The translations under genes were made by a program, and so were the position numbers. From an uncultured Rhodospirillales bacterium (GTDB lineage: Bacteria > Pseudomonadota > Alphaproteobacteria > Rhodospirillales > UBA2165), in assembly GCA_905614355.1 (NCBI GenBank), contig CAJQSN010000015.1:22325-86324 (forward strand): 64,000 nucleotides of DNA. The letters run 5' to 3'. Shown here in pieces: positions 30,635 through 64,000 of this stretch; the stretch's first letter is position 1; each line of letters opens with the position of its first letter. The notes under the pieces were generated by a model, which did not search any database, was not told the origin of the DNA, and worked only from the letters and a program-made list of their open reading frames with translations.

Positions 30635-30654
30635 GATTTCTCTAGGAAAGTATT

Positions 30655-31155
30655 ATGGGTGAAAAACGAAATAAAACGCATCTTCATTGCACGGTGAATG
30701 GTAAAGAACGTGATAACTTTGTACCAGACAACATGCTTCTAGTTGATTATCTCCGCGAAGATCTGGACCTCACGGGCACTAAAATTGGTTGCGATGGTGG
30801 TGAATGCGGTTGCTGCACTGTTCTTATAGGAGGCGCACCTCAACATGCCTGCTTGCGCCTGGCAGCAACTTGTCAAGAGCTAGACATCGAGACTATTGAG
30901 TCTCTGTCAGATGCCAGCCGCCTCTCCGCCCTACAACGCGGCTTCCACGAAAAACTTGGTGCGCAATGCGGTTTTTGTACTCCGGGCATGATTATGGCGG
31001 CTGAAGGTTTGCTTAGACAAAATCCTAATCCAAGCGAAGAACAAATCCGTCAAGGGCTAGCCTCTAATATCTGTCGCTGTACAGGCTACATAAAAATTAT
31101 TGAATCGGTTCAATTTGCAATTGGTGAATTAAAATTGGCGGGGAACGCGACATGA
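30655..31155 (+). CDS. hcrC: (2Fe-2S)-binding subunit, 4-hydroxybenzoyl-CoA reductase gamma-like
   Basis: 166 aa. GCDGGECGCCTV and CGFCTPGM...CRCTGY motifs. Symbol assigned from operon context with the HcrB-type beta subunit. Confidence 0.7.
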   Translation: MGEKRNKTHLHCTVNGKERDNFVPDNMLLVDYLREDLDLTGTKIGCDGGECGCCTVLIGGAPQHACLRLAATCQELDIETIESLSDASRLSALQRGFHEKLGAQCGFCTPGMIMAAEGLLRQNPNPSEEQIRQGLASNICRCTGYIKIIESVQFAIGELKLAGNAT

Positions 31156-46449: not shown

Positions 46450-46450
46450 T

Positions 46451-47449: not shown

Positions 47450-47515
47450 TTATTTTTGCTATAAACCTTAGTTATTAAGGCCGGCCATAAAATAAATGAC
47501 CGACCTTATTTTTAA

Positions 47516-48937: not shown

Positions 48938-49121
48938 CTATCGTTCCAAAGTTATTAAAGTTAATTATTTAAATAAAATATAATATAATAATAATTTTTA
49001 TTTAATGCGACTAATTATTAATATCACAGATATTTGCTATAATGAGCTTTTAGTACGATGTCAATTTATATGTGAATGCTTATTATAATTATTCTATTAT
49101 CAAAACCATTAAAACCTAATT

Positions 49122-49140
49122 GAGAATAATTATTATTATC
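49122..49140. promoter_or_regulatory. Fur-box-like site in the divergent promoter region of the iron-uptake genes
   Basis: GAGAATAATTATTATTATC matches 15 of 19 positions of the enterobacterial Fur consensus GATAATGATAATCATTATC. The region is very AT-rich, so chance matches are likely. Confidence 0.35.
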
Positions 49141-49232
49141 AGTTTAATTGTCAAATGACAACCTTTGGGCTAAAAGGTTTGATTCTATTGTAAATAAAAG
49201 GTTTTAATAAAAATATAGGTTGAAGAAATTTT

Positions 49233-50306: not shown

Positions 50307-50446
50307 TAAAATTTATTTTTAAATAAGTTTTTTCATAGACATTAATAAATAAATATATATTTACTAATTCCACTTTTAGTTTTTGATTAGCCATTACTAT
50401 CACCTTGGATAATTTTTTCATTATTTAAAATTTAATATTCAGAAAA

Positions 50447-51199
50447 TTGACAAATAAGGCTCTAATCTTGCCAAACTTAATATCCCTACTCTGTCCTTCA
50501 CGCGGCAGGCCAAAAAAACTAGCACGATTAATTAAAAGCATTACAACCACAGCAACAATTCCGTCCCGAATTGAGATTCTCATTTATGTGGATGATGATG
50601 ATCCAGAGAAATTTGAATATATCTTGTCACACAAAAACCTTATACTCGACCCATTGATTTCTAAATTAAAAAATATTGATCTTCTCGTGGACCAACCGTT
50701 CAGAACGCCAATACTAAATAATATTCTATCTGATCGTGCTCAAGGGAATATTCTTATGATTACCAATGATGATCAAATATTTAGGGATAAGAACTGGGAT
50801 ATTAGGATTGATGAAGAGGCCAGAAAATTCCCTGATAATATATACTGTATGTGGTTTAATGACGGGCGGTATCAAGAAAAAATCTGCACATTTCCAATTT
50901 TAAGCAGAGAATGGGTGGATACTATTGGTTATATTGAACCTTTTTTATTTGAGCACTTCAATTGTGATTTATGGACCTGGCAAATTGGAAAAATGATCGA
51001 TCGTCTCCACTATATACCGGATATACTAGTTGAACACCTTCATCCAGATACTGGTAAAGCTGAACAAGATGAAACCACCATGCGTAATTTAAAGGGCAGA
51101 CGCCCTGAAATAGACAAACTAATTTTCGCCAAATCTGAACGATACAGGGTACTTGATGCCTCAATTTTACAAGAAAAAATAAATGCTGATAAAAACTGA
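50447..51199 (+). CDS. hypothetical GT-A-fold glycosyltransferase-like protein
   Basis: 250 aa. ISLLCPSRGRP, VDDDD and NDD (DxD-like) motifs. Only a TTG start is available, and no clear SD. Confidence 0.4.
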   Translation: MTNKALILPNLISLLCPSRGRPKKLARLIKSITTTATIPSRIEILIYVDDDDPEKFEYILSHKNLILDPLISKLKNIDLLVDQPFRTPILNNILSDRAQGNILMITNDDQIFRDKNWDIRIDEEARKFPDNIYCMWFNDGRYQEKICTFPILSREWVDTIGYIEPFLFEHFNCDLWTWQIGKMIDRLHYIPDILVEHLHPDTGKAEQDETTMRNLKGRRPEIDKLIFAKSERYRVLDASILQEKINADKN

Positions 51200-51687
51200 G
51201 GATACAACGGAGTATCCACTGCAGATCAGGGCTATTAGATTAAAAAAATATAACTTAAAATCCTTTTTATTTATGTATATTAAAAAATCGGTGGAAATGG
51301 CGCAACGAAATATTATTGGTTTTTAATATAGAAGAGAAACAATATCAAAAACTCAATAATACTATGGACCATTAGACATATTGTCATTTAAACTATTTTA
51401 AATATAAGAAAATAAGTATAATTTAAAGAGAAGCCTTTGGTTTCGATTAAAAGAGTATTTAATGACTTAACTGAAGTTATTAAATACAATCCGCCAATTT
51501 AAAATGAAAATAATTATTGAAATCTCTTATTTAGATCTTATCAAGTTTTTGATAATAAATACGGCAGATAAACGTCTCAAATAAGCTTCCACATATTAAT
51601 GAATTATCGTAATCTTTACTGTATTAACTAATCGAATTACATTATCATGTTCTCTAAAAATAAATTCGGTAAAGTTGTAAATCTATT

Positions 51688-52680
51688 ATGAAGTCATTAA
51701 AAGATATCGTGACTGGCGGCTGCGGATTCATTGGTAGTCATCTCGTGGATGCTTTGTTGGCCCAGGGCAGGCAAGTTTACGTTATCGATAATTGCCGTGT
51801 GGGGCGACAGTCAAACCTTATTAATCATGCGAATAATCCTAATTTGGAAATCTTTGAAGTCGACGTTTCTGAACGCAAAACTATGACAAAACTCTTTACG
51901 GGTGCGGATCGAGTTTTCCATTTAGCAGCAATGGCTGATATTATTCCCTCTATAAATAACCCAGAACTTTATATTGACGCTAATGTAAACGGTACCTATT
52001 CAGTAGTTGAGGCCGCTCATAAAGCCGGTGTTCGAAGATTCATTTATGCAGCTTCATCATCTTGTTATGGTATCCCAAAATCTTACCCAACTTCTGAGAT
52101 GTCCCAGTTAGAGCCCCAATACCCCTATGCGCTGACTAAGATGTTAGGCGAACAAATTGTACTCCATTGGGCTCAGGTTTTTAGTTTACCCGCGGTTGTT
52201 CTTAGAATGTTCAATGTATACGGAACTCGGGCAAGGACGTCAGGAACCTATGGAGCAGTATTTGGTGTCTTTTTAGCCCAAAAAATAGCAAACAAAGCTT
52301 TCACAGTTGTCGGAGATGGGAAACAAACTCGAGATTTTACGTATGTAAGCGACGTCGTGGAGGCCTTTATAAAAGCCGCAGAGTCTAATCTTGTAAATGA
52401 AGTTATGAATGTTGGGAGTGGCAGCACATATAGTATTAACTATCTTGTGAAGTTATTACAAGGTGATGTGGTCCACATCCCCAAGCGCCCGGGTGAACCT
52501 GACTGTACTTTTGCTGATATATCAAAAATTAGCCACATGATAGATTGGAAACCAAAAATTTCATTGGAGGAAGGCGTTAATAAAATGATAGAAAATATTG
52601 ACTACTGGAAAGATGCACCCGTCTGGAGTCCAGAGTCGATCCAAGAAGAAACTAAGATTTGGTTCGATAAATTATCTTAA
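51688..52680 (+). CDS. NAD-dependent epimerase/dehydratase (extended SDR)
   Basis: 330 aa. TGGCGFIGSHL Rossmann motif and catalytic YxxxK (YALTK). Confidence 0.8.
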   Translation: MKSLKDIVTGGCGFIGSHLVDALLAQGRQVYVIDNCRVGRQSNLINHANNPNLEIFEVDVSERKTMTKLFTGADRVFHLAAMADIIPSINNPELYIDANVNGTYSVVEAAHKAGVRRFIYAASSSCYGIPKSYPTSEMSQLEPQYPYALTKMLGEQIVLHWAQVFSLPAVVLRMFNVYGTRARTSGTYGAVFGVFLAQKIANKAFTVVGDGKQTRDFTYVSDVVEAFIKAAESNLVNEVMNVGSGSTYSINYLVKLLQGDVVHIPKRPGEPDCTFADISKISHMIDWKPKISLEEGVNKMIENIDYWKDAPVWSPESIQEETKIWFDKLS

Positions 52681-52692
52681 AAGGAATGAAAA

Positions 52693-53703
52693 ATTAATAT
52701 TAAAACCTCAAAGCTAGAAACAGTTTTAGTTACCGGCGGCGCTGGATATGTCGGAAGCAAACTGATCCCAGCTCTTCTTAATGCCGGTTATAAAGTAAAA
52801 GTCTTAGATTTATATATTTTTGGCAAGCATATTTTTAAAAATTACGAAACTAATCCCAATTTGATTGAATTCCACGGTGACATACGTGAACCTGAGATGG
52901 TTCGCCACGCGATGCAGAACTGTGACCATGTAATTCACCTAGCATGCATATCAAACGATACTTCCTTCGACCTTGACCCTGGACTGGGTGAATCAATTAA
53001 CTTTAAAGCATTCAGGCCTCTCGTTAAGGCAGCCAAAAAAGCAGGAGTAAAAAGATTTATATACGCCTCTTCGTCTAGTGTCTACGGCGTCAAAAAAGAG
53101 CGTAACGTAAGTGAAGATTTATGCCTAGATCCACTGACCGATTACTCTAAGTTTAAAGCGCTGTGTGAAAATATTTTGGAAGAAGAACGTGAACCTGGCT
53201 TTACGACACTAATATTACGGCCCGCTACTATCTGCGGATATGCTCCTAGATTACGTCTAGACTTAACCGTAAATATTCTAACGAACCTTGCCGTTGTAAA
53301 CGGATTAATTACAGTTTTTGGCGGCACACAATTACGACCAAATATCCATATCAACGACATGGTGGACCTTTATACCAAGTGTCTTTCTTACCCCGAAAAA
53401 TCTATAGATGGTCAAATATTTAACATAGGCTATGAAAATTATTCTGTCATGGAAATAGCCGAAATAGTCCGCAGTGCCGTGGGAAGTACCGTGGAAATTA
53501 AGAGAAGCAGTACCGACGATCTGCGCTCTTATCATATATCTTCAAATAAAATTTCTGATAAACTGGGATTTATACCATCACACTCAATTGAGGATGCCGC
53601 TAATGACTTAATCTCAGCTTTTAACTCTGATTTAATAAAAAATTCTTTAACAGATCCAATCTTTTTCAATGTTAGGAAAATGAAAAAAATAGGCCTCAAA
53701 TAA
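52693..53703 (+). CDS. NAD-dependent epimerase/dehydratase (extended SDR) with no canonical start codon upstream of its Rossmann motif
   Basis: The frame is open from 52690 and encodes KINIKTSKLETVLVTGGAGYVGSKL.... The first ATG/GTG/TTG in frame is at 52861, after GxxGxxG. An ATT at 52693 lies 7 nt after AGGA. YSKFK catalytic motif. Confidence 0.65.
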   Translation: MNIKTSKLETVLVTGGAGYVGSKLIPALLNAGYKVKVLDLYIFGKHIFKNYETNPNLIEFHGDIREPEMVRHAMQNCDHVIHLACISNDTSFDLDPGLGESINFKAFRPLVKAAKKAGVKRFIYASSSSVYGVKKERNVSEDLCLDPLTDYSKFKALCENILEEEREPGFTTLILRPATICGYAPRLRLDLTVNILTNLAVVNGLITVFGGTQLRPNIHINDMVDLYTKCLSYPEKSIDGQIFNIGYENYSVMEIAEIVRSAVGSTVEIKRSSTDDLRSYHISSNKISDKLGFIPSHSIEDAANDLISAFNSDLIKNSLTDPIFFNVRKMKKIGLK

Positions 53704-54194: not shown

Positions 54195-55253
54195 TCAAAA
54201 AGGCCCAGTAAAATTAGTGTTTGGTATATCTAGACGAACTCCTTCTTCTAACTTCCACCATTTCTTATCCAAATTACGTCCAAAGGATGACAGTGCTAAT
54301 TCTGCAATATCTACTGCTCGTGGAAAATATGTTTTTGCTAGAGAAGACGAAGTTGGTGAAGGTAAATCAGGCAACGAAATTCTATTTGGCGAGGACTTTA
54401 GTTTACCGTATAGATTCTCTACGCATTTCGCAATGATCTCACCAGAAACACCAAAACTCATAGTCCCAGTATCAGCGACCAGCAAACGCCCTGTTTTAGA
54501 AACAGATTCAAAGATGGTATCCCAATCAAGGGGTGACACGGTTCGAATATCCACAATTTCAGTTGACACTCCACTGTCTTCTAGCATATCCGCTGCCCGG
54601 AGGGATTCAATCGTCATATAAGACAAACTAACGATCGTTATGTCCGTTCCCTCACGGATAACTTTACATCGTCCAAGGGGCTCACTATATTTTTCTTGGG
54701 GGACCAACGAATTTAAGCCATAGAGCCACCGGTGTTCTATAAAAATAACAGGATTATTGTCTTCTATACTCGCGATCAAAAGCCCCTTTGCATCATGAGC
54801 TGTTGCAGGCATTACAACTTTTAGTCCAGGTACATGTGCAAACATTGCCTGCAAACTTTGCGAATGTTGAGGCCCTTGCCCCCAACCCCTGCCAATGATC
54901 ATTCTAATAACTATTGGTACTGAACTCTGACCAGCAAACATAAAATACCACTTAGCTGCTTGATTAACTATTTGCTCCATTGCCGCAATCGCGAAATCTA
55001 TTCGTTGATGAGATAAGACCGGTCTCATTCCCGTTATCGCAGAACCAATCGCCATCCCAGTTACAGCATTCTCAGATATTGGCATATCAAACACTCGGTC
55101 ACTGCCAAACTTTTCCCTAAGTCCAATAGTGGTACCAAATATGCCCTTTGGGTCTGGAGCCCCTAAGCCGATAACATACACATTCTCATCGGCTTCTAAG
55201 CATTGTACTTGCGCTTCGTTCAAAGCCTCAGCATATGTTAAGGTTCTTATCAT
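54195..55253 (-). CDS. ThDP-dependent 2-oxoacid dehydrogenase E1 component, beta subunit-like
   Basis: 352 aa. LTYAEALNEA, VFDMPISENA..GMAIG, transketolase-like Pyr and C-terminal domains. Confidence 0.8.
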   Translation of the reverse strand: MIRTLTYAEALNEAQVQCLEADENVYVIGLGAPDPKGIFGTTIGLREKFGSDRVFDMPISENAVTGMAIGSAITGMRPVLSHQRIDFAIAAMEQIVNQAAKWYFMFAGQSSVPIVIRMIIGRGWGQGPQHSQSLQAMFAHVPGLKVVMPATAHDAKGLLIASIEDNNPVIFIEHRWLYGLNSLVPQEKYSEPLGRCKVIREGTDITIVSLSYMTIESLRAADMLEDSGVSTEIVDIRTVSPLDWDTIFESVSKTGRLLVADTGTMSFGVSGEIIAKCVENLYGKLKSSPNRISLPDLPSPTSSSLAKTYFPRAVDIAELALSSFGRNLDKKWWKLEEGVRLDIPNTNFTGPF

Positions 55254-55276
55254 ATAATATTTAACTCCAATATACG

Positions 55277-56266
55277 TTATTGAGCGCTAAAAATATCAGT
55301 AAATGCATTTTTGATACTTGGAAAAGGCTGGCTTTTGGCATATTGCACTGCGTTATTCATTTCAGTTAAATACTCGGAAAATAGCTTTTGATAAAGTGCA
55401 TCGCTCATAATATTCATAGACATCAAGATAGTTTCATACGCTTTAAGTGGACATTTGGCCTGCCACTGTAAAAATTCAGCTTCAGTACGGTAACCAATAT
55501 CGTTATCATAATTTGGACCACAATGCTCCCTCCAGCGATAAGTCAACAACTTTATAAAACTGGGTCCCCCACCTTCTCGAGCGCGATTGACTGCGGATAA
55601 AGTCAGATTAAACACTTCTTCGACATTATTTCCATCACCTTCAAAGCTATTAACACCGTGCCCCTGAACTAATTTTATTATATCCCTATTGGCTGATTGG
55701 CGTTCCTCAAAAGAAGAATAGACAGAATAAAAATTATCTTCGCAGATGAAAATTACCGGTAAATTTTGAGTAGCTGCAAAATTTATACTTTCATGAAATA
55801 CGCCGGTTTCTGTTGCCCCATCACCAAAATAAGCTACAGAAACCGCATGCTGTTTTTTTATTTTTGCGGTAAATGCGGCCCCAACGGCGACGGGAATTGT
55901 GCTTCCAACTATTGGAGTGGATCCCATAAAATTTACTGACAAATCTATTAAATGCATAGATCCACCATTACCCTGTGAGCAGCCACCTTCCTTTCCATAT
56001 ATTTCGGCCATCATTGCTTTCAGATTGCCACCTTTTGCGAGATAGTGACCATGAGCACGGTGTCCGCTAAACACATAGTCTCTATTTTGAAGAGCTGCGG
56101 ATACGCCTACTGCTATTGCTTCCTGTCCTATACAAAGATGAACTGGACATCGCATTTCTTGCTCAGAATAAAGCTCTGCAATACGTTCTTCTACCGTGCG
56201 AATTCGCAACATTTCATTATAAAGATTTTGTTTGAATTCAAGTCTTACGGATTGATCAATCATCAT
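55277..56266 (-). CDS. ThDP-dependent 2-oxoacid dehydrogenase E1 component, alpha subunit-like
   Basis: 329 aa. VHLCIGQEA, ThDP motif GDGATETGVFHESINFAA..LPVIFICEDN. Confidence 0.8.
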   Translation of the reverse strand: MMIDQSVRLEFKQNLYNEMLRIRTVEERIAELYSEQEMRCPVHLCIGQEAIAVGVSAALQNRDYVFSGHRAHGHYLAKGGNLKAMMAEIYGKEGGCSQGNGGSMHLIDLSVNFMGSTPIVGSTIPVAVGAAFTAKIKKQHAVSVAYFGDGATETGVFHESINFAATQNLPVIFICEDNFYSVYSSFEERQSANRDIIKLVQGHGVNSFEGDGNNVEEVFNLTLSAVNRAREGGGPSFIKLLTYRWREHCGPNYDNDIGYRTEAEFLQWQAKCPLKAYETILMSMNIMSDALYQKLFSEYLTEMNNAVQYAKSQPFPSIKNAFTDIFSAQ

Positions 56267-57789
56267 TATTTTAATAAAGCAGTTACATGCTTGGACATAT
56301 TAATTCGATCCAAATAATTTCGATTTCCAAGATAACCAAGCATTTCAGCTCCGGCTAAATTTCCAACGAAACCAACAATATCCCAAGAAAAATTTTTAAA
56401 CACTAGTGGTGTCGTTAAGGCTAATACAGCATCTCCTGCACCCACCCGATCGAGAACTTTAAACGCTAAGGCAGGAACCTCGTAAAAGCCAGTATTTCTA
56501 TCATAATGAAGACTGCCATCTTTACCTAGCGTTATTGTAAAGCGTGAGCAGTCAATCTGGTCCGACAAGCGGGTCAAAAGATCCGACATGGATTGCTCGC
56601 GCGCACGTATTTCAAGCTCTAATTCATTACCGGAAAGCGAAACATAATCTGCTCGAGAATAACGCGTTAATGTATTAAATCCACGATTTCCAGCATTGGC
56701 TTGGGTGTTGACAGATAAAAATTTAGCTTTATTCACCAACAACTCTATGATGGCGGGAGTTAACATGCCATGACCATAATCGGTCACAACGACCATATCA
56801 TAATCACCAATAATAGACCTTAATTTTTGCAGTATTTTAGCTTCAACCCCCTTGGATAAGGGCTGATCAACCATTTCATATAATTCAAACAATTTTGCAC
56901 CTGAATGACGGTCAATAAAGCGCCTTTTATGAATTGTTGGCACCTTAGGGCCGATTACAAAATTTGCTTGAACATTATCGCGCAACGAATTTGATATAAA
57001 ATTTTCTCGACTTTTTTCCTCTCCTAATACGGTTAAAAGTCCAACATTTTTTATAAATCCTGCCATATGATTTGCTACAGCGAGGCTACCACCAGAATAG
57101 GTTTCAGTCGAACCGTACTTAAAAGCTAAGATTGGATCTTTAGCCGACTTTCCTAAGGCATCACAAAATACGTACTCATCGATAATTGCTTCACCAATAA
57201 CAAGTGCGCTACATTCCGAAATTTTATCAAATCCAGCTAAAATATCTTGTGCCGAGTGAATTTCTCTAAATTTGCCTAGCCACTCTTCGGTAGCTGTTGG
57301 AAAAAGTTGGAACTGACTATTTATTAATGATGAAGAACTATAAGTCTCGGCAGATGTAAAATGAATCCTTCCTCCAATAGATGTAACAGCATTCTTCTCT
57401 TCAACAATTTTCCCTGTTAGATCATTTTTAAGATCTGCATACTCATCCCCTTTCACATAAACATCAGGTTCAAGCTTTAAAATCACATCAATTGCAGTAG
57501 GGAAATTACTTATCGCGACGTAGTCAACCATCTCAACTGCTGCAAGATTTTCAGAACGCAGTCTCTCATTAAAAATTGGACGGCCGGGGCACTTACTAGC
57601 ATATTGATCGGAAGTAACTGTTACAACTAGGCAGTCACCTTCTTTTTTAGCAGCCTCAAAATGTTTTATATGGCCAGGGTGCACAAGATCGAAAACGCCA
57701 TGGCACAAAACAATACGTGCCCCGCCCTCTTTGCGACTTCGAATTGTCTTAGATAGAAAATCTAATTGGAAGATCTTACTTTCGTACAT
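56266..57789 (-). CDS. bifunctional N-terminal cytidylyl/adenylyltransferase (HxGH) plus C-terminal PfkB sugar kinase
   Basis: 507 aa. N-terminus CHGVFDLVHPGHIKHF...LVVTVTSD (RfaE domain II-like). C-terminus PfkB with DRVGAGDA. TAATG overlap with the E1 alpha gene. Confidence 0.75.
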   Translation of the reverse strand: MYESKIFQLDFLSKTIRSRKEGGARIVLCHGVFDLVHPGHIKHFEAAKKEGDCLVVTVTSDQYASKCPGRPIFNERLRSENLAAVEMVDYVAISNFPTAIDVILKLEPDVYVKGDEYADLKNDLTGKIVEEKNAVTSIGGRIHFTSAETYSSSSLINSQFQLFPTATEEWLGKFREIHSAQDILAGFDKISECSALVIGEAIIDEYVFCDALGKSAKDPILAFKYGSTETYSGGSLAVANHMAGFIKNVGLLTVLGEEKSRENFISNSLRDNVQANFVIGPKVPTIHKRRFIDRHSGAKLFELYEMVDQPLSKGVEAKILQKLRSIIGDYDMVVVTDYGHGMLTPAIIELLVNKAKFLSVNTQANAGNRGFNTLTRYSRADYVSLSGNELELEIRAREQSMSDLLTRLSDQIDCSRFTITLGKDGSLHYDRNTGFYEVPALAFKVLDRVGAGDAVLALTTPLVFKNFSWDIVGFVGNLAGAEMLGYLGNRNYLDRINMSKHVTALLK

Positions 57790-57908
57790 CTAGTCTCATA
57801 TTATGGAAAAAAATTCAGGGCCCAAAATTGGAGTATAAAAAACAATTTACTCAAATGTAGTAACTATTACCACCTAAAGATAAATAAATATGGATTAAGT
57901 ATCCACTC

Positions 57909-60047
57909 TCAAACCTCTAAAGTATTAACTAGACTATCACTTGGCGCTATGATGCTCGACTTTCTATCTAATTTGGCTGAACCACAAGAACCAATTCGCA
58001 TAATTCGGTGGATGGGCACCTTCATTAGCAAGCTCCCTAAGCTAGCAAGTGTCGTACTATACCTATGCTTATACCCATTGATAGTTTCTTTCTGTAGATT
58101 ATCATGCTGAAATGACACTACGATTGGACTTGGCAACCTGAGGTTTCTATGGTCCGGAACTGCACCCCCTTCAAACACTTTTAAAAAATCGTAATCAAAG
58201 GCTGCGGTATTAGTTAAATCAGTATTTAAGATGTCAACTTTTCTAAGCAAAGAGTACGTTTTCATTTGCTCAATAAAATCTAATATTTCGGGAGTATCCA
58301 TCTTACTAGCAGCAAGGTTTTCTAAGAAAATATCATAGAAGAAATCATGCAATTCCTCTTGAGCAAAGAAAAAAGACCTCGCCTTAGCATTTGAAATTGC
58401 AAGCTGATTTACTCCATCGCTAGTTTCCAAATAATGTTGAATATTCTCTTTGACGTGTTGTTCTAATTCTTCTCTGCTATCCCATAAACCTGTTCCAGAA
58501 TCATTTTTAAATGTCTCATACAATCCAGCCAATACCGGTGGGAATCCCTCTCTGCGATCATAAAACTCAAAAACTAATTTGGGCCAATCCAAGCCAAGTA
58601 ATGCAGACAAATCAAAAAGCTCCCTGAACACCTTCCCATTATGAATCAGTTCTACAGTCAAATCTAGCATTCGGCATTCCAAATACTCGTCAAAGCTCAT
58701 ACTATTTTGTGACACACAAATTTCATCAAACTCAACTGAAATAAATTTTTTTCCAAAGAGACTATAATTACCGAATGAACGTGCCGCTACTCGATATTTA
58801 GTTTCTATTCCATATTTTTCTCGAGAGGCAGGAACCATCATTTCAGTCTGAGGTAGCATGATAAGCTGGTGCATTCGTACCAAAGCTACACCTGACATTA
58901 TTGAATCAACTAAAGACTGCCGATGAGCTCTGACACTATCACCCGGCAGACCAAGAATAATTTCAACAAATGAACGGGCATTAATTTTGTGACTACGATC
59001 GCCTATATCTGCTAGTTCTCCATAGCTAATGTTTGATCGCTTTATATTAGAAAGAACTTCGGCATCTGTAGATTGCATTGATGCAGATATATCCATACGC
59101 CCCTCAAGAATAGTTGCCACTTCGAGAAGACGGTCCTTTTGATTTTTCCCACCAGCTACTTGAATATGTTTTGGCCAATTATATTTCTTAAATATTCGCG
59201 CAATATCTTTTGCCTTATTAATATCTTCAATAAACATCCCAAAATTCGCATCGGTCATTACTAAATCAGGAACAATAGAAATACGTTTTGCGATATATTC
59301 TAATTCTTCAAATAATTCAAAACGTTTAGTTACCTTGGCATAATATCGATCCCCCTCAGTACAAAATGTACATGTAAATGGACATCCACGCGTAGTGTGC
59401 ATCATAGGTATCAGAACAGAATCAAAAAACTTATCCATTAATCCTTCTAAATATGGTGAAGGAATTTCGTTCAAATTCTTTATTCGGGGTAAAATTTCAC
59501 CCTGAAACAACTTACCATTTTTAAAATAATGTGCATTGGCTGGTGGGTTATCCAGGCGTTTTACGGCCTCCACTTCGAAATTAACTTCACGCAATCTTGA
59601 AATCAATTCTGCAAAAGCAACCTCGCCCTCGCGAACGAGATAAAAGTCAATTGCCGGATACTTTTGCCAAAAATCCGAAACTTCTCCCACCGTTAGCCCA
59701 TAATTCGGACCACCAAATACAATAACAACTTCAGGGTGTTTAAGCTTTATTCTTTGAGCAAAATCATAAGCAATATTTAAGTTCCATGAATAATTAGCAA
59801 ACCCCATAATATCTGGTGGCTTACTTTCAAGGGCTTGCGCCAAATCTTCAGGATATTTAAAGAGTTCAATTTCAACGGAAGTTGAATGCTCCTTGAGAGC
59901 ATAAGCTGCTATAACCCCAATACCTAATGGATGCACATTTGCCGAAACAGTCTGCCCAGTATGGCTCAAATCCGCCATATAAATTAATGTTTTTCTATCT
60001 TTTTTTTTTCTAGTTAGGCCCATTCCACCCTTCCTTATAACATCCAT
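57909..60047 (-). CDS. B12-binding-domain radical SAM protein (class B)
   Basis: 712 aa. N-terminal Rossmann-like cobalamin-binding region (VVIVFGGPN...DFYLVREGEVAF) and radical SAM motif RGCPFTCTFC. Alternative start at 60023. Confidence 0.8.
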   Translation of the reverse strand: MDVIRKGGMGLTRKKKDRKTLIYMADLSHTGQTVSANVHPLGIGVIAAYALKEHSTSVEIELFKYPEDLAQALESKPPDIMGFANYSWNLNIAYDFAQRIKLKHPEVVIVFGGPNYGLTVGEVSDFWQKYPAIDFYLVREGEVAFAELISRLREVNFEVEAVKRLDNPPANAHYFKNGKLFQGEILPRIKNLNEIPSPYLEGLMDKFFDSVLIPMMHTTRGCPFTCTFCTEGDRYYAKVTKRFELFEELEYIAKRISIVPDLVMTDANFGMFIEDINKAKDIARIFKKYNWPKHIQVAGGKNQKDRLLEVATILEGRMDISASMQSTDAEVLSNIKRSNISYGELADIGDRSHKINARSFVEIILGLPGDSVRAHRQSLVDSIMSGVALVRMHQLIMLPQTEMMVPASREKYGIETKYRVAARSFGNYSLFGKKFISVEFDEICVSQNSMSFDEYLECRMLDLTVELIHNGKVFRELFDLSALLGLDWPKLVFEFYDRREGFPPVLAGLYETFKNDSGTGLWDSREELEQHVKENIQHYLETSDGVNQLAISNAKARSFFFAQEELHDFFYDIFLENLAASKMDTPEILDFIEQMKTYSLLRKVDILNTDLTNTAAFDYDFLKVFEGGAVPDHRNLRLPSPIVVSFQHDNLQKETINGYKHRYSTTLASLGSLLMKVPIHRIMRIGSCGSAKLDRKSSIIAPSDSLVNTLEV

Positions 60048-60071
60048 AAGCTACATACCTAGGATCAAACG

Positions 60072-61256
60072 CTAGATATAATTAATGTGTTGCGGCGGTA
60101 AACCCTTTTGACCAGCAGTTAAATTAATTCGGCCTTTAACATGTGCATCTAAAGCTTCATTTACTTTATGTTGTAGACACAAAGTTCCACACATCTTTTG
60201 AGCATTAAATTCGGGAGACGCTAAATAGTTCATCACATCCCAGTATGCGTCACTCTGCCATATATCCTTAAATCGAGTTTCACAAATATTACCTATATGG
60301 AATCGTTTATAACGCTCGTTGAATAGCATGCCACATGGCGCAACGAGCCCGGAACCAGAAAGTTGAATTAAAAAAGGAGCCCCAAAACAACGCTGATAAC
60401 TTCTCTTGTCGCCGGCTTCGATTTTCGACCATTTTACTATAACTTTATATTCTTCATCGGATAAAGATTCTGCTTTTCGCAATTTTTCGTACATACCCTC
60501 ATAACCCGAATAATCAACACCCAAATCACCATTCTCATTATCACTACAGTGTTTGATTACTAAATAATCTGGACGGAGTTCTTTTCCCAGCTTGGCAAGA
60601 GGTAGTATCTGATCTTCGTATTCAGGCATTAAAACCATTTGCATACCAATGGTAACACTTAAATTTCGCCGCTTCTTTATCTCAACCATATCTCGGATAT
60701 TTTGTTTAACTCTCTCAAACCACTCGGCTTTAACTCCCATAATTTCACCATACCTCGCAGCTTCTCCAGCAGAGATATTAACGCGCAGATAGGTCATATG
60801 AGGCAAAATTTCCTCTAAAATTGGCTTTTTCAGAACAAATGCATTTGAGGCGGCCGACATAGAAAGACCAAGTTCATTACCGCGAATGATAGTATCAACA
60901 AACACCGGAGAAATAGAACTTTCGCCATCTGAAACAAGACTAATACCTTTAACACCAATTTCAGCACAATCCTCTAAAAAATCATAAATAATTGGCTTAG
61001 TGATAGTATGGCGTTCATTTTCTTGCAGCATAGCATAGCAAAAGTGGCATCCGAAATTGCAAGCCCGTGTCAATGCCATATCAATAGTAATAGGTGCAAT
61101 CCGTTCTCCCCGCTCCCAAGCTTTTATACGCTCTGTATGCCAAGCTATTTTCGTATCATCCAAATTAAGCGGAGCTAGTTCAGGTGAGTCTAGCAAGTTA
61201 GCCTCCTTATATGGAATATCTTGCAGAGCTCTATCCCCACAAATTACTTTTTGCAT
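60072..61256 (-). CDS. radical SAM protein with C-terminal Cys-rich twitch/SPASM-like region
   Basis: 394 aa. CNFGCHFC (CxxxCxxC). C-terminal C-x14-G-x4-C (CFGAPFLIQLSGSGLVAPC) and CGTLC. Confidence 0.75.
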   Translation of the reverse strand: MQKVICGDRALQDIPYKEANLLDSPELAPLNLDDTKIAWHTERIKAWERGERIAPITIDMALTRACNFGCHFCYAMLQENERHTITKPIIYDFLEDCAEIGVKGISLVSDGESSISPVFVDTIIRGNELGLSMSAASNAFVLKKPILEEILPHMTYLRVNISAGEAARYGEIMGVKAEWFERVKQNIRDMVEIKKRRNLSVTIGMQMVLMPEYEDQILPLAKLGKELRPDYLVIKHCSDNENGDLGVDYSGYEGMYEKLRKAESLSDEEYKVIVKWSKIEAGDKRSYQRCFGAPFLIQLSGSGLVAPCGMLFNERYKRFHIGNICETRFKDIWQSDAYWDVMNYLASPEFNAQKMCGTLCLQHKVNEALDAHVKGRINLTAGQKGLPPQHINYI

Positions 61257-61349: not shown

Positions 61350-62504
61350 CTACCTTAATCTCCGAATTTTATTTTTATCTTTAACTTCAGTGGTATAAAT
61401 CTGTAATTTTGGTTCTAGATTAATTTTTAAATACCTTTCAAGTTCCCGTGCGATGTTTGACTTATCAATTGAATTGACATTCGAAAAACCAACAAAAACA
61501 CGAACAGGATAACCATCGAGATCAGATTCTATACGTTCAAAAGACAAAGTGACTTTATCATCTGTCTCTGATGACGTAAATTTTTCCATGGATTGCTGTA
61601 CCACTTTAGTCCTTTCATCGTAAGAAAGTGCTGTCCACCCGATTCTTGGTGGCGGGTCAAATTCGTTGAGACTCGATTTAAATTTATTCTCTGAGCAATA
61701 GTTAGAATATAACTTTAAAACTACATTTTGCATGCTCACAAATAGTTTGCCAGCATTCGATGGCAAAAAAATACCAGGACCTCGCTGTATAGCACCCAAT
61801 TCAGCAAGTTTATGAACCATTTTAAGGACCCCGTGCTCAACACCTTCAATTAGAGGAGATCCCTGTAAGTTTTCACATAGAAAATCCCAATAAGCTTTAT
61901 CTTGATCTTCTTTCGCTCCAGCATGGCGGGCTTTTTCAATAGATGGGATATTACCAGTTATTTTAAAGAATAGCTTCACACCGTCTAAGGAAACAACAAA
62001 AATAGATCCTGGATCGAGCTGCAACTCACCTTCAAAGTTAATACTTCTCTCAAACAATTTTACTTTGAAATAACTTTCCGTGCTCACCTGCGTAGAGACT
62101 TGATTAGTGCCGGACTGTTCTAGTGGTGCTGCCTTTCGTAATTTTTTTGAATCAACTATATGATTTAACACATCCCAATGCGGAGCGGCAATTCCGTTTA
62201 TTCTCAATATAATTCCATCAGAATTTTTTTCAAACTCAGCAGACATACAATCACCAAGTGACTCAAGAAGTATTATCTTATCATTAGGTGTCAACTGACC
62301 ATCACCAAATTGAATACTAATGGTGGTCCTACCTGCCAAATGAACGACGTCTATGAGGTTAATTACACTGCGTAATGTATTACTATCCGGAACCCAGTTC
62401 GCCAGAAAATCTTGCCCCAATTCCAAACCACGCAACTGTTCAACTAAAGCTAGGTCATATTCTTCTAAAAGTTGCCTATAGTTCAATATTATTTCAGATA
62501 CCAA
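61350..62504 (-). CDS. hypothetical protein, no recognisable family
   Basis: 384-aa intact ORF on the same strand as, and upstream of, the radical SAM genes. No motif I can place. Confidence 0.5.
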   Translation of the reverse strand: MVSEIILNYRQLLEEYDLALVEQLRGLELGQDFLANWVPDSNTLRSVINLIDVVHLAGRTTISIQFGDGQLTPNDKIILLESLGDCMSAEFEKNSDGIILRINGIAAPHWDVLNHIVDSKKLRKAAPLEQSGTNQVSTQVSTESYFKVKLFERSINFEGELQLDPGSIFVVSLDGVKLFFKITGNIPSIEKARHAGAKEDQDKAYWDFLCENLQGSPLIEGVEHGVLKMVHKLAELGAIQRGPGIFLPSNAGKLFVSMQNVVLKLYSNYCSENKFKSSLNEFDPPPRIGWTALSYDERTKVVQQSMEKFTSSETDDKVTLSFERIESDLDGYPVRVFVGFSNVNSIDKSNIARELERYLKINLEPKLQIYTTEVKDKNKIRRLR

Positions 62505-62607: not shown

Positions 62608-64000
62608 CTAGAGGTGGTCCTCAAAAACTTCCGGGTCCAATTTATTTGCTTTTTCCAACATTATTTCTGCCTCCTGGTCATCGCCTCGTTGGCTTAGAAA
62701 TCGTGCGCATAATCTATAGCTTACTGCGTCACCTGGATTAATCAAGATCGCTTGACGAAAGGTAAATAATGCATCTTCTGTCAGACCTATTTTTCCTAAC
62801 ACCAAACCTAATTTAAGGTAACCTGTTATTTTTTCAGGATCCAACATTATTCCATATCTATAAGATGCAATTGCTTGCTCAACTTTAGATTGAACCGCGA
62901 GAAGGTCAGCATAACAAAGTCGCGCATAACCATTTTCCGGTTCAGCTTTTAAAATAATACCAAAATGTTTATCGGCGACCGAAAAATTTTTAATCCACGT
63001 TTCATTAACAGCTACTCTCAATCGCAAAGTCGTATTCTCAGTGTCAAATTGAAGACAATGCCGCAACACCATGGCAGCCGAATTACATGTTTTGAACTTA
63101 TCAAGACGTTCACCAACTTTCAAAGCGGGTTCTCGATTGATAGCAAAAAAACCAATTGCTTCACCACTTTTTGTATGAGCGCCAGGGTTGTCAATAAACG
63201 CAACCATCATATCAAAATACTTTTGAATCACTTCATAATTATCATCTGCCCATACCCATCTCTGAAAAGAATTTTGAAAATGAGGCTGATCACCAATACC
63301 TACTCCAACGGTAGCTTGCAAACCTCTAGCTGTCGCATCATGCCAATTTTTCACCATGGGTTTAAAACTAAGGCACTTCACATTATGGTTAAGTGTGCAC
63401 AAAGCCAATGGTCCACCATTGGTCACTAAATTTAAATAGCATTCTTCGTAAAACGCCATTCTTAGTTCTATATTAAAGGCAATTTCATTAAACATTGTGA
63501 GGCCAACCAATTCCTCCGGAACCATTTCATTCGCTGCATAAGTATCTCTAATAACAACCGGTAGGTATTTCTCTGGATCCAATGAATGAGCGAATCTTGC
63601 CCACTCGGCAATATTACTATTTTTTTCATTGCCATAGCCTGCTTCGCGCAAAGTAATGCTAATTACATGGCGCCCATTTGCGCGGGCTTTTATCCAAGAA
63701 CGAGCCATATCCAAGGCCTGAGGGGTTGCTTTAAGGGATGACCAAGATTCACCGCACACGTGAACGGCCGTAATTTCAGACAATTGGAACCGTGGGATAG
63801 AATTCTTAACAGAACTCCCCTCAGGGAACACATTTAGACCAGCCATCAAAAAAAATTTTTCTGCCTCTGTTCGACTTCCACACACTGAGACGAGACCACC
63901 GCAAGAAGGCATCAAAGAACACCCAGGCACAATTATCTGCCTAATGCGCCAGTTAATATCAATCTCATCAAACCGATCAAGTAGAAAATTTTTTCTAATA
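62608..64000 (-). CDS. GT-B-like (heptosyltransferase-like) domain fused to C-terminal TPR repeats; 5' end outside the window
   Basis: The reading frame stays open to the window edge (..IRKNFLLDRFDEIDINWRIRQIIVPGCSLM..). The C-terminal ~120 aa form TPR-like helices (AIASYRYGIMLDP, ALFTFRQAILINP, EAEIMLEKANKLDP). Confidence 0.5.
   Translation of the reverse strand, partial: IRKNFLLDRFDEIDINWRIRQIIVPGCSLMPSCGGLVSVCGSRTEAEKFFLMAGLNVFPEGSSVKNSIPRFQLSEITAVHVCGESWSSLKATPQALDMARSWIKARANGRHVISITLREAGYGNEKNSNIAEWARFAHSLDPEKYLPVVIRDTYAANEMVPEELVGLTMFNEIAFNIELRMAFYEECYLNLVTNGGPLALCTLNHNVKCLSFKPMVKNWHDATARGLQATVGVGIGDQPHFQNSFQRWVWADDNYEVIQKYFDMMVAFIDNPGAHTKSGEAIGFFAINREPALKVGERLDKFKTCNSAAMVLRHCLQFDTENTTLRLRVAVNETWIKNFSVADKHFGIILKAEPENGYARLCYADLLAVQSKVEQAIASYRYGIMLDPEKITGYLKLGLVLGKIGLTEDALFTFRQAILINPGDAVSYRLCARFLSQRGDDQEAEIMLEKANKLDPEVFEDHL

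Follow-up and report, generated by a model that had tools for sequence, protein, structure and literature searches.

A modular operon with two radical SAM enzymes and its probable product, an unusual activated sugar for a surface glycan

Among studied genes, the nearest to the locus described here is, by published descriptions, CBU0678 of Coxiella burnetii, a reversed-order HldE homologue needed for full-length O-antigen (PMC5843353, PMC5423948). It lies in the gene block CBU0674-CBU0678, with a phosphoheptose isomerase and two SDRs beside it (PMC5843353, PMC5423948); the gene came from Alphaproteobacteria by horizontal transfer, and what it does biochemically has been called unclear (PMC5843353, PMC5423948, PMC13252051). 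Kinase-nucleotidyltransferase fusions and NTP promiscuity have been described for the HENases (PMC11461863). For the E1 pairs AviB1/AviB2 and Pau11/Pau12, the proposed role is to furnish a ketosugar with a C2 branch that comes from pyruvate (PMC4753412); branching enzymes of the YerE type fall in another ThDP family (PMC9306805). Published excerpts on the TokK, ThnK, CysS and KedN5 enzymes describe methylation of unactivated sp3 carbons, often repeatedly. BtrN and DesII, radical SAM enzymes acting on sugars or cyclitols, are paired with DegT aminotransferases.

The window (the whole 64-kb stretch of DNA that was analysed) has the following features:

50447-51199, plus strand: unannotated 250-aa protein, upstream of the SDR pair; membership uncertain
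51688-52680, plus strand, convergent to the operon: SDR_A, extended SDR (Pfam Epimerase/GDP_Man_Dehyd)
52693-53703, plus strand, convergent: SDR_B, second extended SDR, GalE-like (tblastn with the Azospirillum SDR)
54195-55253, minus strand: E1 beta gene, 352 aa (Pfam Transket_pyr and Transketolase_C)
55277-56266, minus strand: E1 alpha gene, 329 aa (Pfam E1_dh)
56266-57789, minus strand: NT-PfkB fusion gene, 507 aa (Pfam CTP_transf_like and PfkB)
57909-60047, minus strand: B12 radical SAM gene, 712 aa (Pfam B12-binding and Radical_SAM)
60072-61256, minus strand: SPASM radical SAM gene, 394 aa (Pfam Radical_SAM and SPASM)
61350-62504, minus strand: 384-aa partner gene (unannotated family)
62608-63930, minus strand: 440-aa TPR gene (Pfam TPR families in the C-terminal part)

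The five enzyme genes form a real operon, a reading drawn from their shared direction, their short junctions (24 nt, 119 nt, a 1-nt overlap and 23 nt, hence at most 119 nt), the lack of terminator-like sites in these junctions and synteny with metagenome contig L082. The latter carries, in matching gene order, a TPR fragment, a 381-aa unknown protein, the radical SAM enzyme, the B12 radical SAM enzyme, NT-PfkB, E1 alpha and E1 beta, and its proteins are 51-91% identical to those of the window. The five minus-strand genes and junction lengths listed in the first-pass annotation were borne out exactly by the ORF coordinates, and Pfam confirmed its domain calls for all five enzymes. The unit is, however, larger than the five genes to which it had been limited: the 384-aa gene and the two SDRs (51688-53703) are also conserved partners. 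The co-directional run begins with the 440-aa gene, and the window ends just upstream. This gene had been called GT-B/TPR; the TPR part stands, with Pfam matches only at residues ~285-435, but the GT-B part does not, since residues 1-280 match no Pfam family, GT-B or other. The C-terminus of the protein is 41.5% identical over 53 aa to the fragment upstream of the 381-aa gene in L082.

The NT-PfkB fusion carries its cytidylyl/adenylyltransferase-like domain at the N-terminus and its PfkB kinase domain at the C-terminus, reversing the HldE order. Its top NCBIfam models are HldE and the two HldE domains, all below cut-off (152.8 versus 521 for HldE), and in the PDB it comes closest to chain 5x9q, which is cytidylyltransferase-like, and to D-beta-D-heptose 7-phosphate kinase 4e84. 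These matches make the fusion HldE-like, in agreement with the earlier proposal of a kinase and nucleotidyltransferase following HldE logic. The catalytic motifs are intact, with CHGVFDLxHxGH, TFSSSxLIN and VDxVGAGD conserved. The likeness to HldE and HldA+HldC thus extends to both domains, which score best on HldE models, and to the conserved HxGH and GAGD motifs; the fusion departs from HldE and the HENases in its reversed order, in scores far below cut-off and in having TFSSS rather than GxSTT, and it sits in a tailoring cluster, whereas HldE sits among LPS-core genes. With the Coxiella gene, likened here by published descriptions, it shares the nucleotidyltransferase domain first and the kinase second, near SDR genes and a GmhA-type isomerase. 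Unlike the Coxiella block, the window contains no phosphoheptose isomerase, and the published excerpts describing CBU0674-CBU0678 mention no radical SAM enzyme or E1 pair.

The product of 57909-60047 is a predicted cobalamin-type (class B) radical SAM enzyme in the TokK/CysS/KedN5-like methylase neighbourhood. Pfam B12-binding scores 47.7 bits (cut-off 32.1), C222, C226 and C229 are invariant across 15 homologues, and the nearest PDB relatives are the C-methylases TokK (2.9e-41) and CysS (1.1e-35), which upholds the kinship to class-B C-methylases first suggested for it. Against the NCBIfam KedN5 family it reaches 145.8 bits (cut-off 700). The enzyme has 2954 homologues in many phyla, and its database start, 8 codons downstream, gives 704 aa. 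It resembles TokK in its N-terminal B12-binding domain and CxxxCxxC core, with an alignment over residues 76-504; it differs from TokK and CysS in a ~200-aa C-terminal region outside both alignments and in its non-actinomycete context of sugar-nucleotide genes, theirs being carbapenem or cystobactamid pathways.

Judged by homology, the products of 55277-56266 and 54195-55253 are putative ThDP-dependent E1 alpha-like and E1 beta-like subunits. E1 alpha matches Pfam E1_dh with 230 bits, contains the ThDP motif GDG...N and scores 300.9 bits on NCBIfam PDH E1 alpha (cut-off 393.85); E1 beta scores 304.1 bits on the NCBIfam E1 beta subfamily (cut-off 321). E1 alpha genes are co-located with sugar genes in many phyla. 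As in the AviB and Pau systems, the pair stands alone in a sugar pathway, lacking E2 or E3; those systems, likened by description, differ in serving actinomycete antibiotic (avilamycin, paulomycin) pathways on deoxyhexoses or pentoses.

The 394-aa enzyme is a predicted radical SAM protein with a partial SPASM (twitch-like) C-terminal domain. Its Pfam scores exceed the cut-offs (Radical_SAM 40.9 bits, SPASM 28.3 bits), and cysteines 66, 70 and 73 are invariant, as are 97, 237, 290, 308, 356 and 360. Of the motifs first read in the two radical SAM enzymes, CNFGCHFC, GCPFTCTFC and CGTLC are present, but the supposed C-x14-G-x4-C has a real spacing of x12 (C290-x12-G-x4-C308). The enzyme has 6251 homologues, the best 120 of which are all at least 75% identical; among cellular relatives it is 64-78% identical, its neighbours 21-60%. 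No NCBIfam equivalog was found (top score 61 bits, cut-off 380), and weak PDB matches go to SkfB (the best), PqqE, DesII (1e-3) and BtrN (twitch region, 0.06), the last two being among six profile matches. A radical SAM core followed by a C-terminal Cys-rich domain with C-x12-G-x4-C and a later CxxxC is shared with the BtrN-, DesII- and HygY-type enzymes, which have one auxiliary cluster, and enzymes of the window type, like BtrN and DesII, are often paired with DegT aminotransferases (DegT pairs are linked to them at 20-21 of 28 loci of at least 12 kb). They differ in the marginal similarity, the absent equivalog, an obligate-looking partner protein and the unusually high sequence conservation.

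That partner is the 384-aa protein, a conserved companion of the SPASM enzyme. It has no match in Pfam, NCBIfam or PDB, yet it aligns over almost its whole length (~98%), at 21-28% identity, with the gene immediately upstream of the radical SAM gene in Azospirillum and metagenome loci, and its family comprises 671 representative clusters at E<=1e-3. A family HMM found matches at 54 SPASM-anchored and 0 B12-anchored loci; 38 of the 54 lie directly upstream of the SPASM enzyme and co-directional with it, and the two are linked at 35 of 45 loci with enough flank. The gene is therefore no orphan, as it had been described: its 671-cluster family sits directly upstream of the radical SAM gene in most related loci. 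Predicted structures reach a pLDDT of 53 for the SPASM enzyme and 47 for the partner, so fold-level support is absent for both.

SDR_A appears from its sequence to be a GalE/WbpP/LegB-like extended SDR and a conserved core partner of the NT-kinase. Its NCBIfam scores all lie below cut-off (LegB 182, GalE 173, RmlB 152 bits), its active-site region reads AASSSCYG...YxxxK, and it is 54-63% identical to the SDR adjoining NT-PfkB in five related loci (L083, L087, L059, L033, L170). SDR_B, 49-60% identical to its homologue in related loci, gives a continuous tblastn match to the Azospirillum SDR (52708-53700, 58.6%); the homologue is placed between NT-PfkB and E1 alpha in L083, L087 and L170. The true start of SDR_B lies upstream of the listed ORF (52861), and its Rossmann motif VTGGAGYVGS lies upstream of the first ATG, GTG or TTG; translation starts at ATT (52693) or, if an A5 run carries a 1-nt slip, at ATG (52686). 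Possibly, although uncertainly, the 250-aa protein belongs to the unit: it matches no Pfam or NCBIfam family, has one homologue (32%) adjoining a B12 radical SAM relative in L077, and carries a PSRGRP...DDDD pattern that we take to be GT-A-like. The 64-kb window holds no GmhA-like, DegT or NUDIX gene, and the third, dehydratase-like SDR that follows E1 beta in L082 and many loci is missing from it. No HAD phosphatase was found among the subset of window ORFs that was family-scanned, and no flippase, polymerase or O-antigen/capsule exporter gene (Wzx, Wzy, Wzm, Wzt) was seen in the window. A nearby ABC ATPase carries a TOBE domain, presumably more typical of importers.

The survey covered ~180 related loci, with co-occurrence counted on those of at least 12 kb (28 SPASM-anchored, 61 B12-anchored). 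The core across the ~180 loci is the NT-kinase with two SDRs, often accompanied by a GmhA-like isomerase, to which E1 alpha/beta, the DegT pair, the SPASM enzyme with its partner and the B12 enzyme are joined as separate modules. The five genes are thus not the co-conserved set that had been supposed. Among the loci surveyed, the two radical SAM enzymes occur together only in the window and its close relative L082, and outside these in 0 of 28 SPASM-anchored and 0 of 61 B12-anchored loci. NT-PfkB homologues (32-53% identity) adjoin SDR_A/SDR_B homologues (45-63%) in Alphaproteobacteria, Elusimicrobia, Omnitrophota, Fibrobacterota, Saccharibacteria, Bacteriovoracaceae and marine metagenomes. 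The GmhA-like SIS gene is found at 14 of 28 SPASM-anchored and 15 of 61 B12-anchored loci, and E1 beta homologues, always amid sugar genes, at 4 and 20, respectively. On a plasmid of the cultured Azospirillum oryzae, the radical SAM/E1/NT-PfkB/SDR/DegT/SIS set adjoins GT4 glycosyltransferases under only generic PGAP names (the SIS gene scores 91 bits on the GmhA model, cut-off 209), and in uncultured tailed phages a SPASM/E1/NT-kinase module lies between portal and head-protease genes, within the head-gene module. The set is a travelling unit. Sugar genes (SDR epimerase/dehydratase-family enzymes, DegT aminotransferases, GmhA-like isomerases, NUDIX proteins and glycosyltransferases) form the neighbourhood in all related loci that were examined, in line with the sugar-nucleotide pathway, as opposed to a RiPP pathway, that was first proposed. 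No orthologous cluster or module with an assigned product was found, and the literature yielded no described nucleotide-sugar pathway matching the combination, as the first-pass annotation had surmised.

On balance, we favour reading 51.7-63.9 kb as a modular glycan-precursor cluster that makes a heavily tailored nucleotide-activated sugar. The chemistry of the individual enzymes (branching, methylation, oxidation or epimerisation) we infer from homology. The NT-PfkB fusion would, HldE-style, first phosphorylate a sugar phosphate at its anomeric position and next nucleotidylate it. A heptose core is suggested by both halves of the fusion scoring best on HldE domain models and the kinase half on 4e84; the sugar phosphate would most likely be a sedoheptulose-7-phosphate-derived heptose, with a GmhA-type isomerase presumably encoded elsewhere in the genome. 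The two GalE-like SDRs may oxidise or epimerise the NDP-sugar. Following the AviB1/AviB2 and Pau11/Pau12 precedent, E1 alpha/beta would decarboxylate pyruvate and place the C2 unit on a sugar carbonyl, and the cobalamin enzyme would methylate an unactivated carbon, possibly on this C2 unit or a terminal carbon. The twitch-like enzyme, with its 384-aa partner, may use radical chemistry to oxidise or epimerise the sugar or to carry out an elimination on it, a role suggested by DesII and BtrN among its weak profile matches. Active-site inspection found the dehydratase Asp/Glu dyad missing from both window SDRs, so that neither offers an obvious source of the stable keto acceptor that E1 would need, and since the family scores (HldE, PDH E1 alpha, KedN5, GmhA) all fall below curated cut-offs, the substrates may differ from those of the named families.

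Two alternatives, each unlikely, concern the sugar itself. E1 alpha/beta could act upstream, transketolase- or DXS-like, adding C2 to an aldose phosphate; the longer ketose phosphate would then pass through the GmhA-like isomerase and NT-kinase to an NDP-higher sugar such as an octose or nonose. E1 alpha does score weakly on DXS and transketolase models, the window has no dehydratase-looking SDR to give a 4-keto acceptor, the sub-cut-off GmhA and HldE scores are consistent with a non-canonical sugar phosphate, and some related clusters (L078) additionally contain a split transketolase. However, most SPASM-anchored clusters with isomerase and NT-kinase lack E1, and an optional enzyme is an unlikely maker of their obligatory substrate; a pyruvate donor would, on chemical grounds, give a 1-deoxy-ketose not isomerisable to an aldose; and where E1 pairs have a published precedent in sugar pathways, it is for branching alone (PMC4753412). 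With similarly low probability, the fusion activates another sugar or polyol phosphate, giving a non-heptose NDP- or CDP-linked unit. The HldE scores far below cut-off, TFSSS where heptose nucleotidyltransferases have GxSTT (PMC11461863), additional matches to glycerol-3-phosphate, ethanolamine-phosphate and choline-phosphate cytidylyltransferases, and the absence of GmhA and GmhB genes from the window point that way; set against them are the GmhA-like isomerase genes adjoining the fusion in about half of related loci, the best scores of the kinase half on the heptose-7-phosphate kinase model and structure 4e84, and the phosphoheptose isomerase flanking the Coxiella homologue (PMC5843353; likened by published description).

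The product is very unlikely to be a diffusible secondary metabolite (aminoglycoside-, nucleoside- or septacidin-like) rather than a cell-surface glycan: TokK, CysS, KedN5, BtrN, DesII and the AviB/Pau E1 pairs all come from antibiotic pathways, and Wzx, Wzy, Wzm and Wzt are all missing from the window, yet related clusters sit amid sugar genes of the usual O-antigen kind and GT2/GT4 glycosyltransferases, genes for an aglycone or scaffold (PKS, NRPS, cyclase) are absent from the vicinity, and the spread over many phyla (CPR, SAR116-type marine bacteria, phages) fits surface glycans better. There is likewise little probability that the cluster in the window is decaying or incomplete and has lost the ability to make a product. 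The isomerase, DegT pair and third SDR of its relatives are missing, and SDR_B has no canonical start codon and a possible frameshift in the A5 run; nevertheless, none of the seven co-directional ORFs or the two SDRs is truncated, their catalytic motifs are intact, table 11 admits ATT as a start codon, here with a Shine-Dalgarno-like AAGGAA ahead of it, and the L082 order, kept at 51-91% identity, implies purifying selection. A ribosomal peptide as the substrate of the two radical SAM enzymes is extremely improbable. RiPP maturation commonly involves SPASM and B12 radical SAM enzymes, SkfB is the best PDB match, though a weak one, and RiPP families occur among the weak NCBIfam matches; we rejected a RiPP pathway in view of the sugar genes throughout related loci, where neither enzyme has a precursor-peptide, RRE, protease or transporter context. 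The window gaps of at most 119 nt leave no space for a precursor gene, and the A. oryzae plasmid has its lasso-peptide genes 7 kb off, on the far side of the glycosyltransferases.

Gene modules that recur across many bacterial phyla and in some phages make up the operon, whose probable product is an unusual activated, heptose-like sugar destined for a surface glycan.

The operon consists of five minus-strand open reading frames. Their spacing (24 nt, 119 nt, a 1-nt overlap, 23 nt) is exactly what the first-pass annotation had measured, and Pfam bears out the domain content read for all five proteins. The five genes are real, but the unit is wider than first drawn, taking in the 384-aa gene upstream and two convergent SDR genes:

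62608–63930, minus strand: TPR gene
61350–62504, minus strand: 384-aa partner gene
60072–61256, minus strand: SPASM radical SAM enzyme (rSAM), 394 aa; Radical_SAM and SPASM domains
57909–60047, minus strand: B12 radical SAM enzyme, 712 aa; B12-binding and Radical_SAM domains
56266–57789, minus strand: NT-PfkB, nucleotidyltransferase-kinase fusion, 507 aa; CTP_transf_like (residues 29–154) and PfkB (residues 196–488)
55277–56266, minus strand: E1 alpha, 329 aa; E1_dh
54195–55253, minus strand: E1 beta, 352 aa; Transket_pyr and Transketolase_C
~52693–53703, plus strand, convergent to the operon: SDR_B; 49–60% identical to SDRs flanking NT-PfkB in related clusters
51688–52680, plus strand, convergent to the operon: SDR_A; 54–63% identical to SDRs flanking NT-PfkB in related clusters

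A closely related locus, the metagenome contig L082, has the same order (TPR fragment, 381-aa hypothetical protein, rSAM, B12 enzyme, NT-PfkB, E1 alpha, E1 beta), with protein identities to the window of 51% (381-aa), 91% (rSAM), 80% (B12 enzyme), 84% (NT-PfkB), 76% (E1 alpha) and 81% (E1 beta). Because this order recurs at those identities, the operon is real and under selection. No terminator-like site was found within its junctions; promoter and terminator scan counts lie at or below shuffle expectation and serve as absence of evidence only. PLSDB plasmids hold no DNA near-identical to the 7-kb region, no Rfam family is found in the window, and the best species-level relatives are Alphaproteobacteria MAGs at 59% identity. 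Since the window's edge comes a short way upstream of the TPR gene, further genes may follow past position 64000.

Two sets of related loci were compared: 77 species-representative genome loci anchored on the B12 enzyme, and 80 metagenome loci, plus further contexts, anchored on the SPASM enzyme. Partner counts were taken among the loci of at least 12 kb.

Partner genes in related loci of at least 12 kb (28 SPASM-anchored, 61 B12-anchored)
SPASM-anchored, DegT aminotransferase 1 / 2: 20/28 / 21/28
SPASM-anchored, SDR_B: 19/28
SPASM-anchored, SDR_A: 17/28
SPASM-anchored, NT-PfkB: 17/28
SPASM-anchored, 384-aa family (tblastn): 16/28
SPASM-anchored, GmhA-like isomerase (SIS): 14/28
SPASM-anchored, E1 alpha / E1 beta: 5/28 / 4/28
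SPASM-anchored, B12 enzyme: 0/28
B12-anchored, E1 beta: 20/61
B12-anchored, GmhA-like SIS: 15/61
B12-anchored, NT-PfkB (at least 32% identity): 5/61
B12-anchored, SPASM enzyme: 0/61

The pathway type first proposed, the building of an activated sugar, holds, but a single fixed five-enzyme pathway does not: the five-gene set as a whole is not co-conserved, while its sub-modules are, in B12- and SPASM-anchored loci. Both radical SAM enzymes occur together, among the loci compared, only in the window and L082. Co-linear loci complete the picture. Elusimicrobia locus L059 reads GT1, a hypothetical gene, SDR_B, SDR_A, NT-PfkB, a hypothetical gene, SDR, Zn-ADH, B12 enzyme, E1 alpha, E1 beta, methyltransferase, a hypothetical gene, DegT, DegT, and the Omnitrophota locus L078 is another fully co-linear example; the Azospirillum loci L083 and L170 read SDR, SDR_A, NT-PfkB, SIS, SDR_B, E1 alpha, E1 beta, DegT, DegT, a hypothetical gene, rSAM, NUDIX, followed by GT4 genes. 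Partner counts and co-linear loci thus define a core of NT-PfkB and two SDRs, often with a GmhA-like isomerase. Around this core, four accessory modules vary in combination: the E1 pair, the DegT pair, the B12 enzyme, and the SPASM enzyme plus its partner. On the plasmid of Azospirillum oryzae KACC 14407 (L170, NZ_CP054615.1, about 207.5–219.9 kb; regions 1883–4498 and 28331–32567 of L170), another radical SAM gene lies beside the cluster. Its product is 25% identical to the window enzyme, and it adjoins a 448-aa TPR protein in an echo of the window's TPR-then-rSAM layout; lasso-peptide genes lie ~7 kb further on.

The top-scoring NCBIfam models for NT-PfkB, HldE and its two domains, all fall well short of cut-off: 152.8 bits for the whole protein against 521 for the NF008454 equivalog, 118.9 against 345 for rfaE_dom_I and 101.2 against 181.5 for rfaE_dom_II. 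NT-PfkB shares the HldE catalytic motifs HxGH (as HPGH) and GAGD (as VGAGD), but whereas HldE has its kinase at the N-terminus and its nucleotidyltransferase at the C-terminus, the order here is reversed. The motifs CHGVFDLxHxGH, TFSSSxLIN and VDxVGAGD, with the two catalytic elements, are conserved in 28 orthologues, and among solved structures the best matches are to a cytidylyltransferase-like chain (5x9q) and to D-beta-D-heptose 7-phosphate kinase (4e84). The published description of Coxiella CBU0678, the HldE homologue of an O-antigen locus, matches the reversed order; on this lead, a comparison by description alone, the activating enzyme of the cluster appears to be of the same kind. Kinase-nucleotidyltransferase fusions making ADP-, CDP- or UDP-heptose have been reported across kingdoms, viruses included (PMC11461863). 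A 790-aa fusion of nucleotidyltransferase, kinase and GmhA in the Fibrobacterota locus L080 (also in L004), a would-be 'Rosetta stone', was rejected as an artefact: a 10-N run at L080 2445–2454 throws the public gene call out of frame, whereas the kinase in fact has a normal end, 12 nt before the start of an SIS gene of its own.

On sequence likeness, both SDR genes are placed in the unit. They are GalE/WbpP/LegB-like, with the active-site regions AASSSCYG and ASSSSVYG, each followed by YxxxK, and neither has the Asp/Glu pair of 4,6-dehydratases. The true start of SDR_B lies upstream of the listed open reading frame, its Rossmann motif preceding the first ATG, GTG or TTG (window 52686–52861). 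Translation would begin either at an ATT at 52693, which has AAGGAA 7–8 nt upstream, or at an ATG at 52686 with a 1-nt slip in an A5 run; in the latter case the frameshift could be genuine or stem from a sequencing error. In L082 (8623–9108) and in many B12-anchored loci, the gene after E1 beta is a third SDR whose SSPEAYG motif is dehydratase-like; it is also found at L078 7019–8095 and L080 5446–6465. It is absent from the window, where 490 bp of non-coding DNA separate E1 beta from the convergent SDR pair.

The SPASM enzyme matches PF13186 at 28.3 bits (cut-off 21.5). The cysteine motifs quoted in the first-pass annotation are present, but the SPASM-type spacing is x12 rather than x14 (C290-x12-G-x4-C308). 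This element, C356-x3-C360, C97 and C237 are invariant; the full seven-cysteine motif of two auxiliary clusters (CX9-15GX4C ... CX2CX5CX3C ... C) is not present, the CX2CX5CX3C block being absent. As five or six C-terminal cysteines are invariant and no more, one auxiliary cluster, of the twitch type, fits the sequence better than two. No NCBIfam equivalog was found, and PDB matches are weak, the core to SkfB, DesII and PqqE and the C-terminal domain to the twitch region of BtrN. The best 120 homologues are all at least 75% identical to the window protein; identity is 64–78% across cellular relatives (78% to Azospirillum) and 91% in L082.

The 384-aa protein, which had been called an orphan, has no match in Pfam, NCBIfam or PDB, and a profile from a 25-member alignment run against PDB, together with member-by-member Pfam scans, found no remote homologue. 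It is, however, no orphan: homologues (21–28% identity, ~98% coverage, E down to 1e-37) immediately precede the SPASM gene in Azospirillum and numerous metagenome contigs. The family HMM matches in 54 SPASM-anchored loci and no B12-anchored locus; 38 of the 54 matches are adjacent to the rSAM, upstream and co-directional, and 35 of the 45 loci with at least 1.3 kb either side of the rSAM have the family. An exhaustive search at E ≤ 1e-3 gives 671 representative clusters. The two neighbours differ sharply in constraint. Against the 78% of the SPASM enzyme, the other Azospirillum proteins are 59–60% (SDRs), 50% (E1 alpha), 47% (E1 beta), 39% (NT-PfkB) and 26–27% (partner) identical to those of the window. 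The asymmetry recurs in L083, L087 and L090, with the partner at 21–28% and other cluster genes at 39–60%, and in L082, where the partner is at 51% against 76–91% for the other genes. A fast-evolving partner beside a constrained rSAM would fit a protein that sets acceptor or substrate specificity, such as a transferase. AlphaFold models are of low confidence, at pLDDT 47 for the 384-aa protein, from a shallow three-sequence alignment, and 53 for the SPASM enzyme, from 20 sequences of low diversity (all at least 75% identical).

Two other readings were considered. Anti-phage defence was rejected: no full-length match to the pVip models or another PADLOC system was found, the pVip match being confined to the N-terminal radical SAM core (45 bits, model positions 2–137 of 257), and the NCBIfam viperin score is 39 against a cut-off of 180. 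Maturation of a peptide would place precursor genes beside the radical SAM genes, a possibility that the first-pass annotation had raised. Neither the ~180 related loci searched by tblastn with the cluster proteins nor the gene tables consulted showed a conserved adjacent precursor-peptide gene or RRE/PqqD-like partner, and the neighbours are sugar genes; a RiPP pathway is thus effectively excluded.

The E1 pair scores below the NCBIfam cut-offs for pyruvate dehydrogenase E1 (alpha 300.9 against 393.85, beta 304.1 against 321). E1 alpha matches E1_dh at 230 bits with an intact ThDP motif (GDGATETG...EDN), and no E2 (lipoyl acyltransferase) or E3 gene lies beside the pair in the window, L078, L080, L083, L087 or L170. 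In sugar pathways, such pairs have their precedent in AviB1/AviB2 and Pau11/Pau12, proposed to attach a pyruvate-derived C2 branch (PMC4753412); the YerE/ErwE scheme was set aside as belonging to a different ThDP family. The B12 enzyme is of class B, with PF02310 at 47.7 bits (cut-off 32.1) and an invariant CxxxCxxC core at C222, C226 and C229; its Radical_SAM match (27.7) is just below the 29.5 cut-off. Its score against the KedN5 subfamily (NF033712) is 145.8 bits, over model positions 16–398 of 624, against a cut-off of 700. It matches TokK at 2.9e-41 (residues 76–504) and CysS at 1.1e-35, enzymes that methylate unactivated carbons, often sequentially. The family numbers 2954 detected homologues, in Nitrospirota, Fibrobacterota, Leptospira, Chlamydiota, Omnitrophota, Saccharibacteria and others.

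Relatives of the SPASM enzyme (49–63% identity) are also encoded on 16 IMG/VR contigs, of which eight carry both E1 subunits, nine NT-PfkB, eight SIS, several SDR_B and DegT homologues, and none the B12 enzyme. In the uncultured tailed phages L171 (42–16148), L177 and L180, a module of two or three paralogous ~290-aa proteins, E1 alpha, E1 beta, SPASM rSAM, NT-PfkB, SDR, DegT and SIS lies between a portal gene (phrog_2662, 3.6e-100) and a prohead-protease/major-head gene (phrog_617, 2e-20; weak Peptidase_S78 match). The paralogues come first, one with a weak GT-A-type (Anp1) match. These data support the SPASM enzyme, the E1 pair and NT-PfkB travelling together as a unit. They also suggest that the module may act in glycosylation of the virion or the host surface. 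A search of GenBank phages gave no match to the SPASM protein, and no cultured phage there has the enzyme.

Other parts of the window bear on its setting. At 27033–34441 lies an anaerobic aromatic-metabolism block of indolepyruvate:ferredoxin oxidoreductase-like genes (27033–30634) and a 2Fe-2S/molybdopterin/FAD trio, whose large subunit scores 1098 bits as 4-hydroxybenzoyl-CoA reductase alpha (cut-off 994.55). This block points to an anaerobic or facultative host, which would be in keeping with the oxygen sensitivity of radical SAM enzymes. At 46000–52000, G+C falls to 0.315–0.353 against ~0.40 elsewhere, over genes for a DUF4856 protein, a fatty-acid-hydroxylase-family protein, an ABC ATPase with a TOBE domain and an unannotated 250-aa gene; this may be foreign DNA beside the glycan cluster. 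A 367-aa protein with arylsulfotransferase (ASST) domains (38088–39191), without an NCBIfam match at E ≤ 1e-20, stands among unrelated metabolic genes.

The reading with most support is that the cluster encodes a tailored NDP-sugar pathway, starting from a ketose phosphate (probably sedoheptulose-7-phosphate) that a GmhA-type enzyme encoded outside the window would isomerise. By homology with HldE, the PfkB domain would then phosphorylate C1, a phosphatase would remove the distal phosphate and the N-terminal domain would form the NDP-sugar, which the SDRs would oxidise or epimerise. Following the precedents, the E1 pair would place a C2 unit on a carbonyl; the B12 enzyme, as a relative of TokK and CysS, would methylate an sp3 carbon; and, more tentatively, the twitch enzyme with its partner may carry out a radical oxidation, epimerisation or elimination.

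This scheme has rivals at several steps. The E1 pair might instead be a chain extender upstream of activation, and NT-PfkB might act on a substrate other than heptose. The product might be a secondary metabolite, or the window cluster might be decaying. The scheme itself has gaps: no dehydratase-type SDR, isomerase or aminotransferase is found in the window and no phosphatase among its scanned ORFs, and no export or polymerisation genes are obvious. Returning to the tailored NDP-sugar, we offer one joint proposal, as a whole rather more doubtful than secure. The hyper-conserved twitch rSAM and its fast-evolving 350–410-aa partner would form a two-protein radical system of a new kind, with an NDP-heptose-type sugar as its substrate; with a stand-alone E1 pair and, in this lineage, a TokK-like cobalamin methylase, it would make higher or branched sugars unseen in any solved glycan pathway. 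It would be used by bacteria of many phyla and carried in a tailed-phage head-gene module, possibly for virion glycosylation. A cobalamin radical SAM C-methylation would then be assigned for the first time to a precursor of a primary cell-surface glycan.

The earlier statement that no described pathway fits also stands: the searchable literature yielded neither a pathway combining these enzymes nor a product assigned to any such cluster. The NCBI pipeline gives the Azospirillum oryzae cluster genes generic names only, and the bradyrhizose paper, in which the synthesis genes are unknown, mentions no radical SAM, transketolase or E1-type genes. Each enzyme class is known by itself, as is the general logic of activation, redox, ThDP and radical tailoring. 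Not described are the combination, the SPASM family together with that of its partner, E1 pairs standing alone in glycan clusters outside the actinomycetes, and the phage-borne copies.

A gene set without an assigned product recurs across many phyla, marine metagenomes, a plasmid of cultured Azospirillum and phage genomes. Three poorly charted types of enzymology would find a place in the ordinary biosynthesis of surface glycans: C-C bond formation on sugars by E1-type enzymes, methylation by a cobalamin radical SAM enzyme, and a twitch rSAM with a partner family. Viruses, to judge by the phage copies, might encode exotic glycosylation of their own. CBU0678 is essential for the virulence-determining O-antigen of Coxiella, and a pathway solved in a tractable host could explain its biochemistry.
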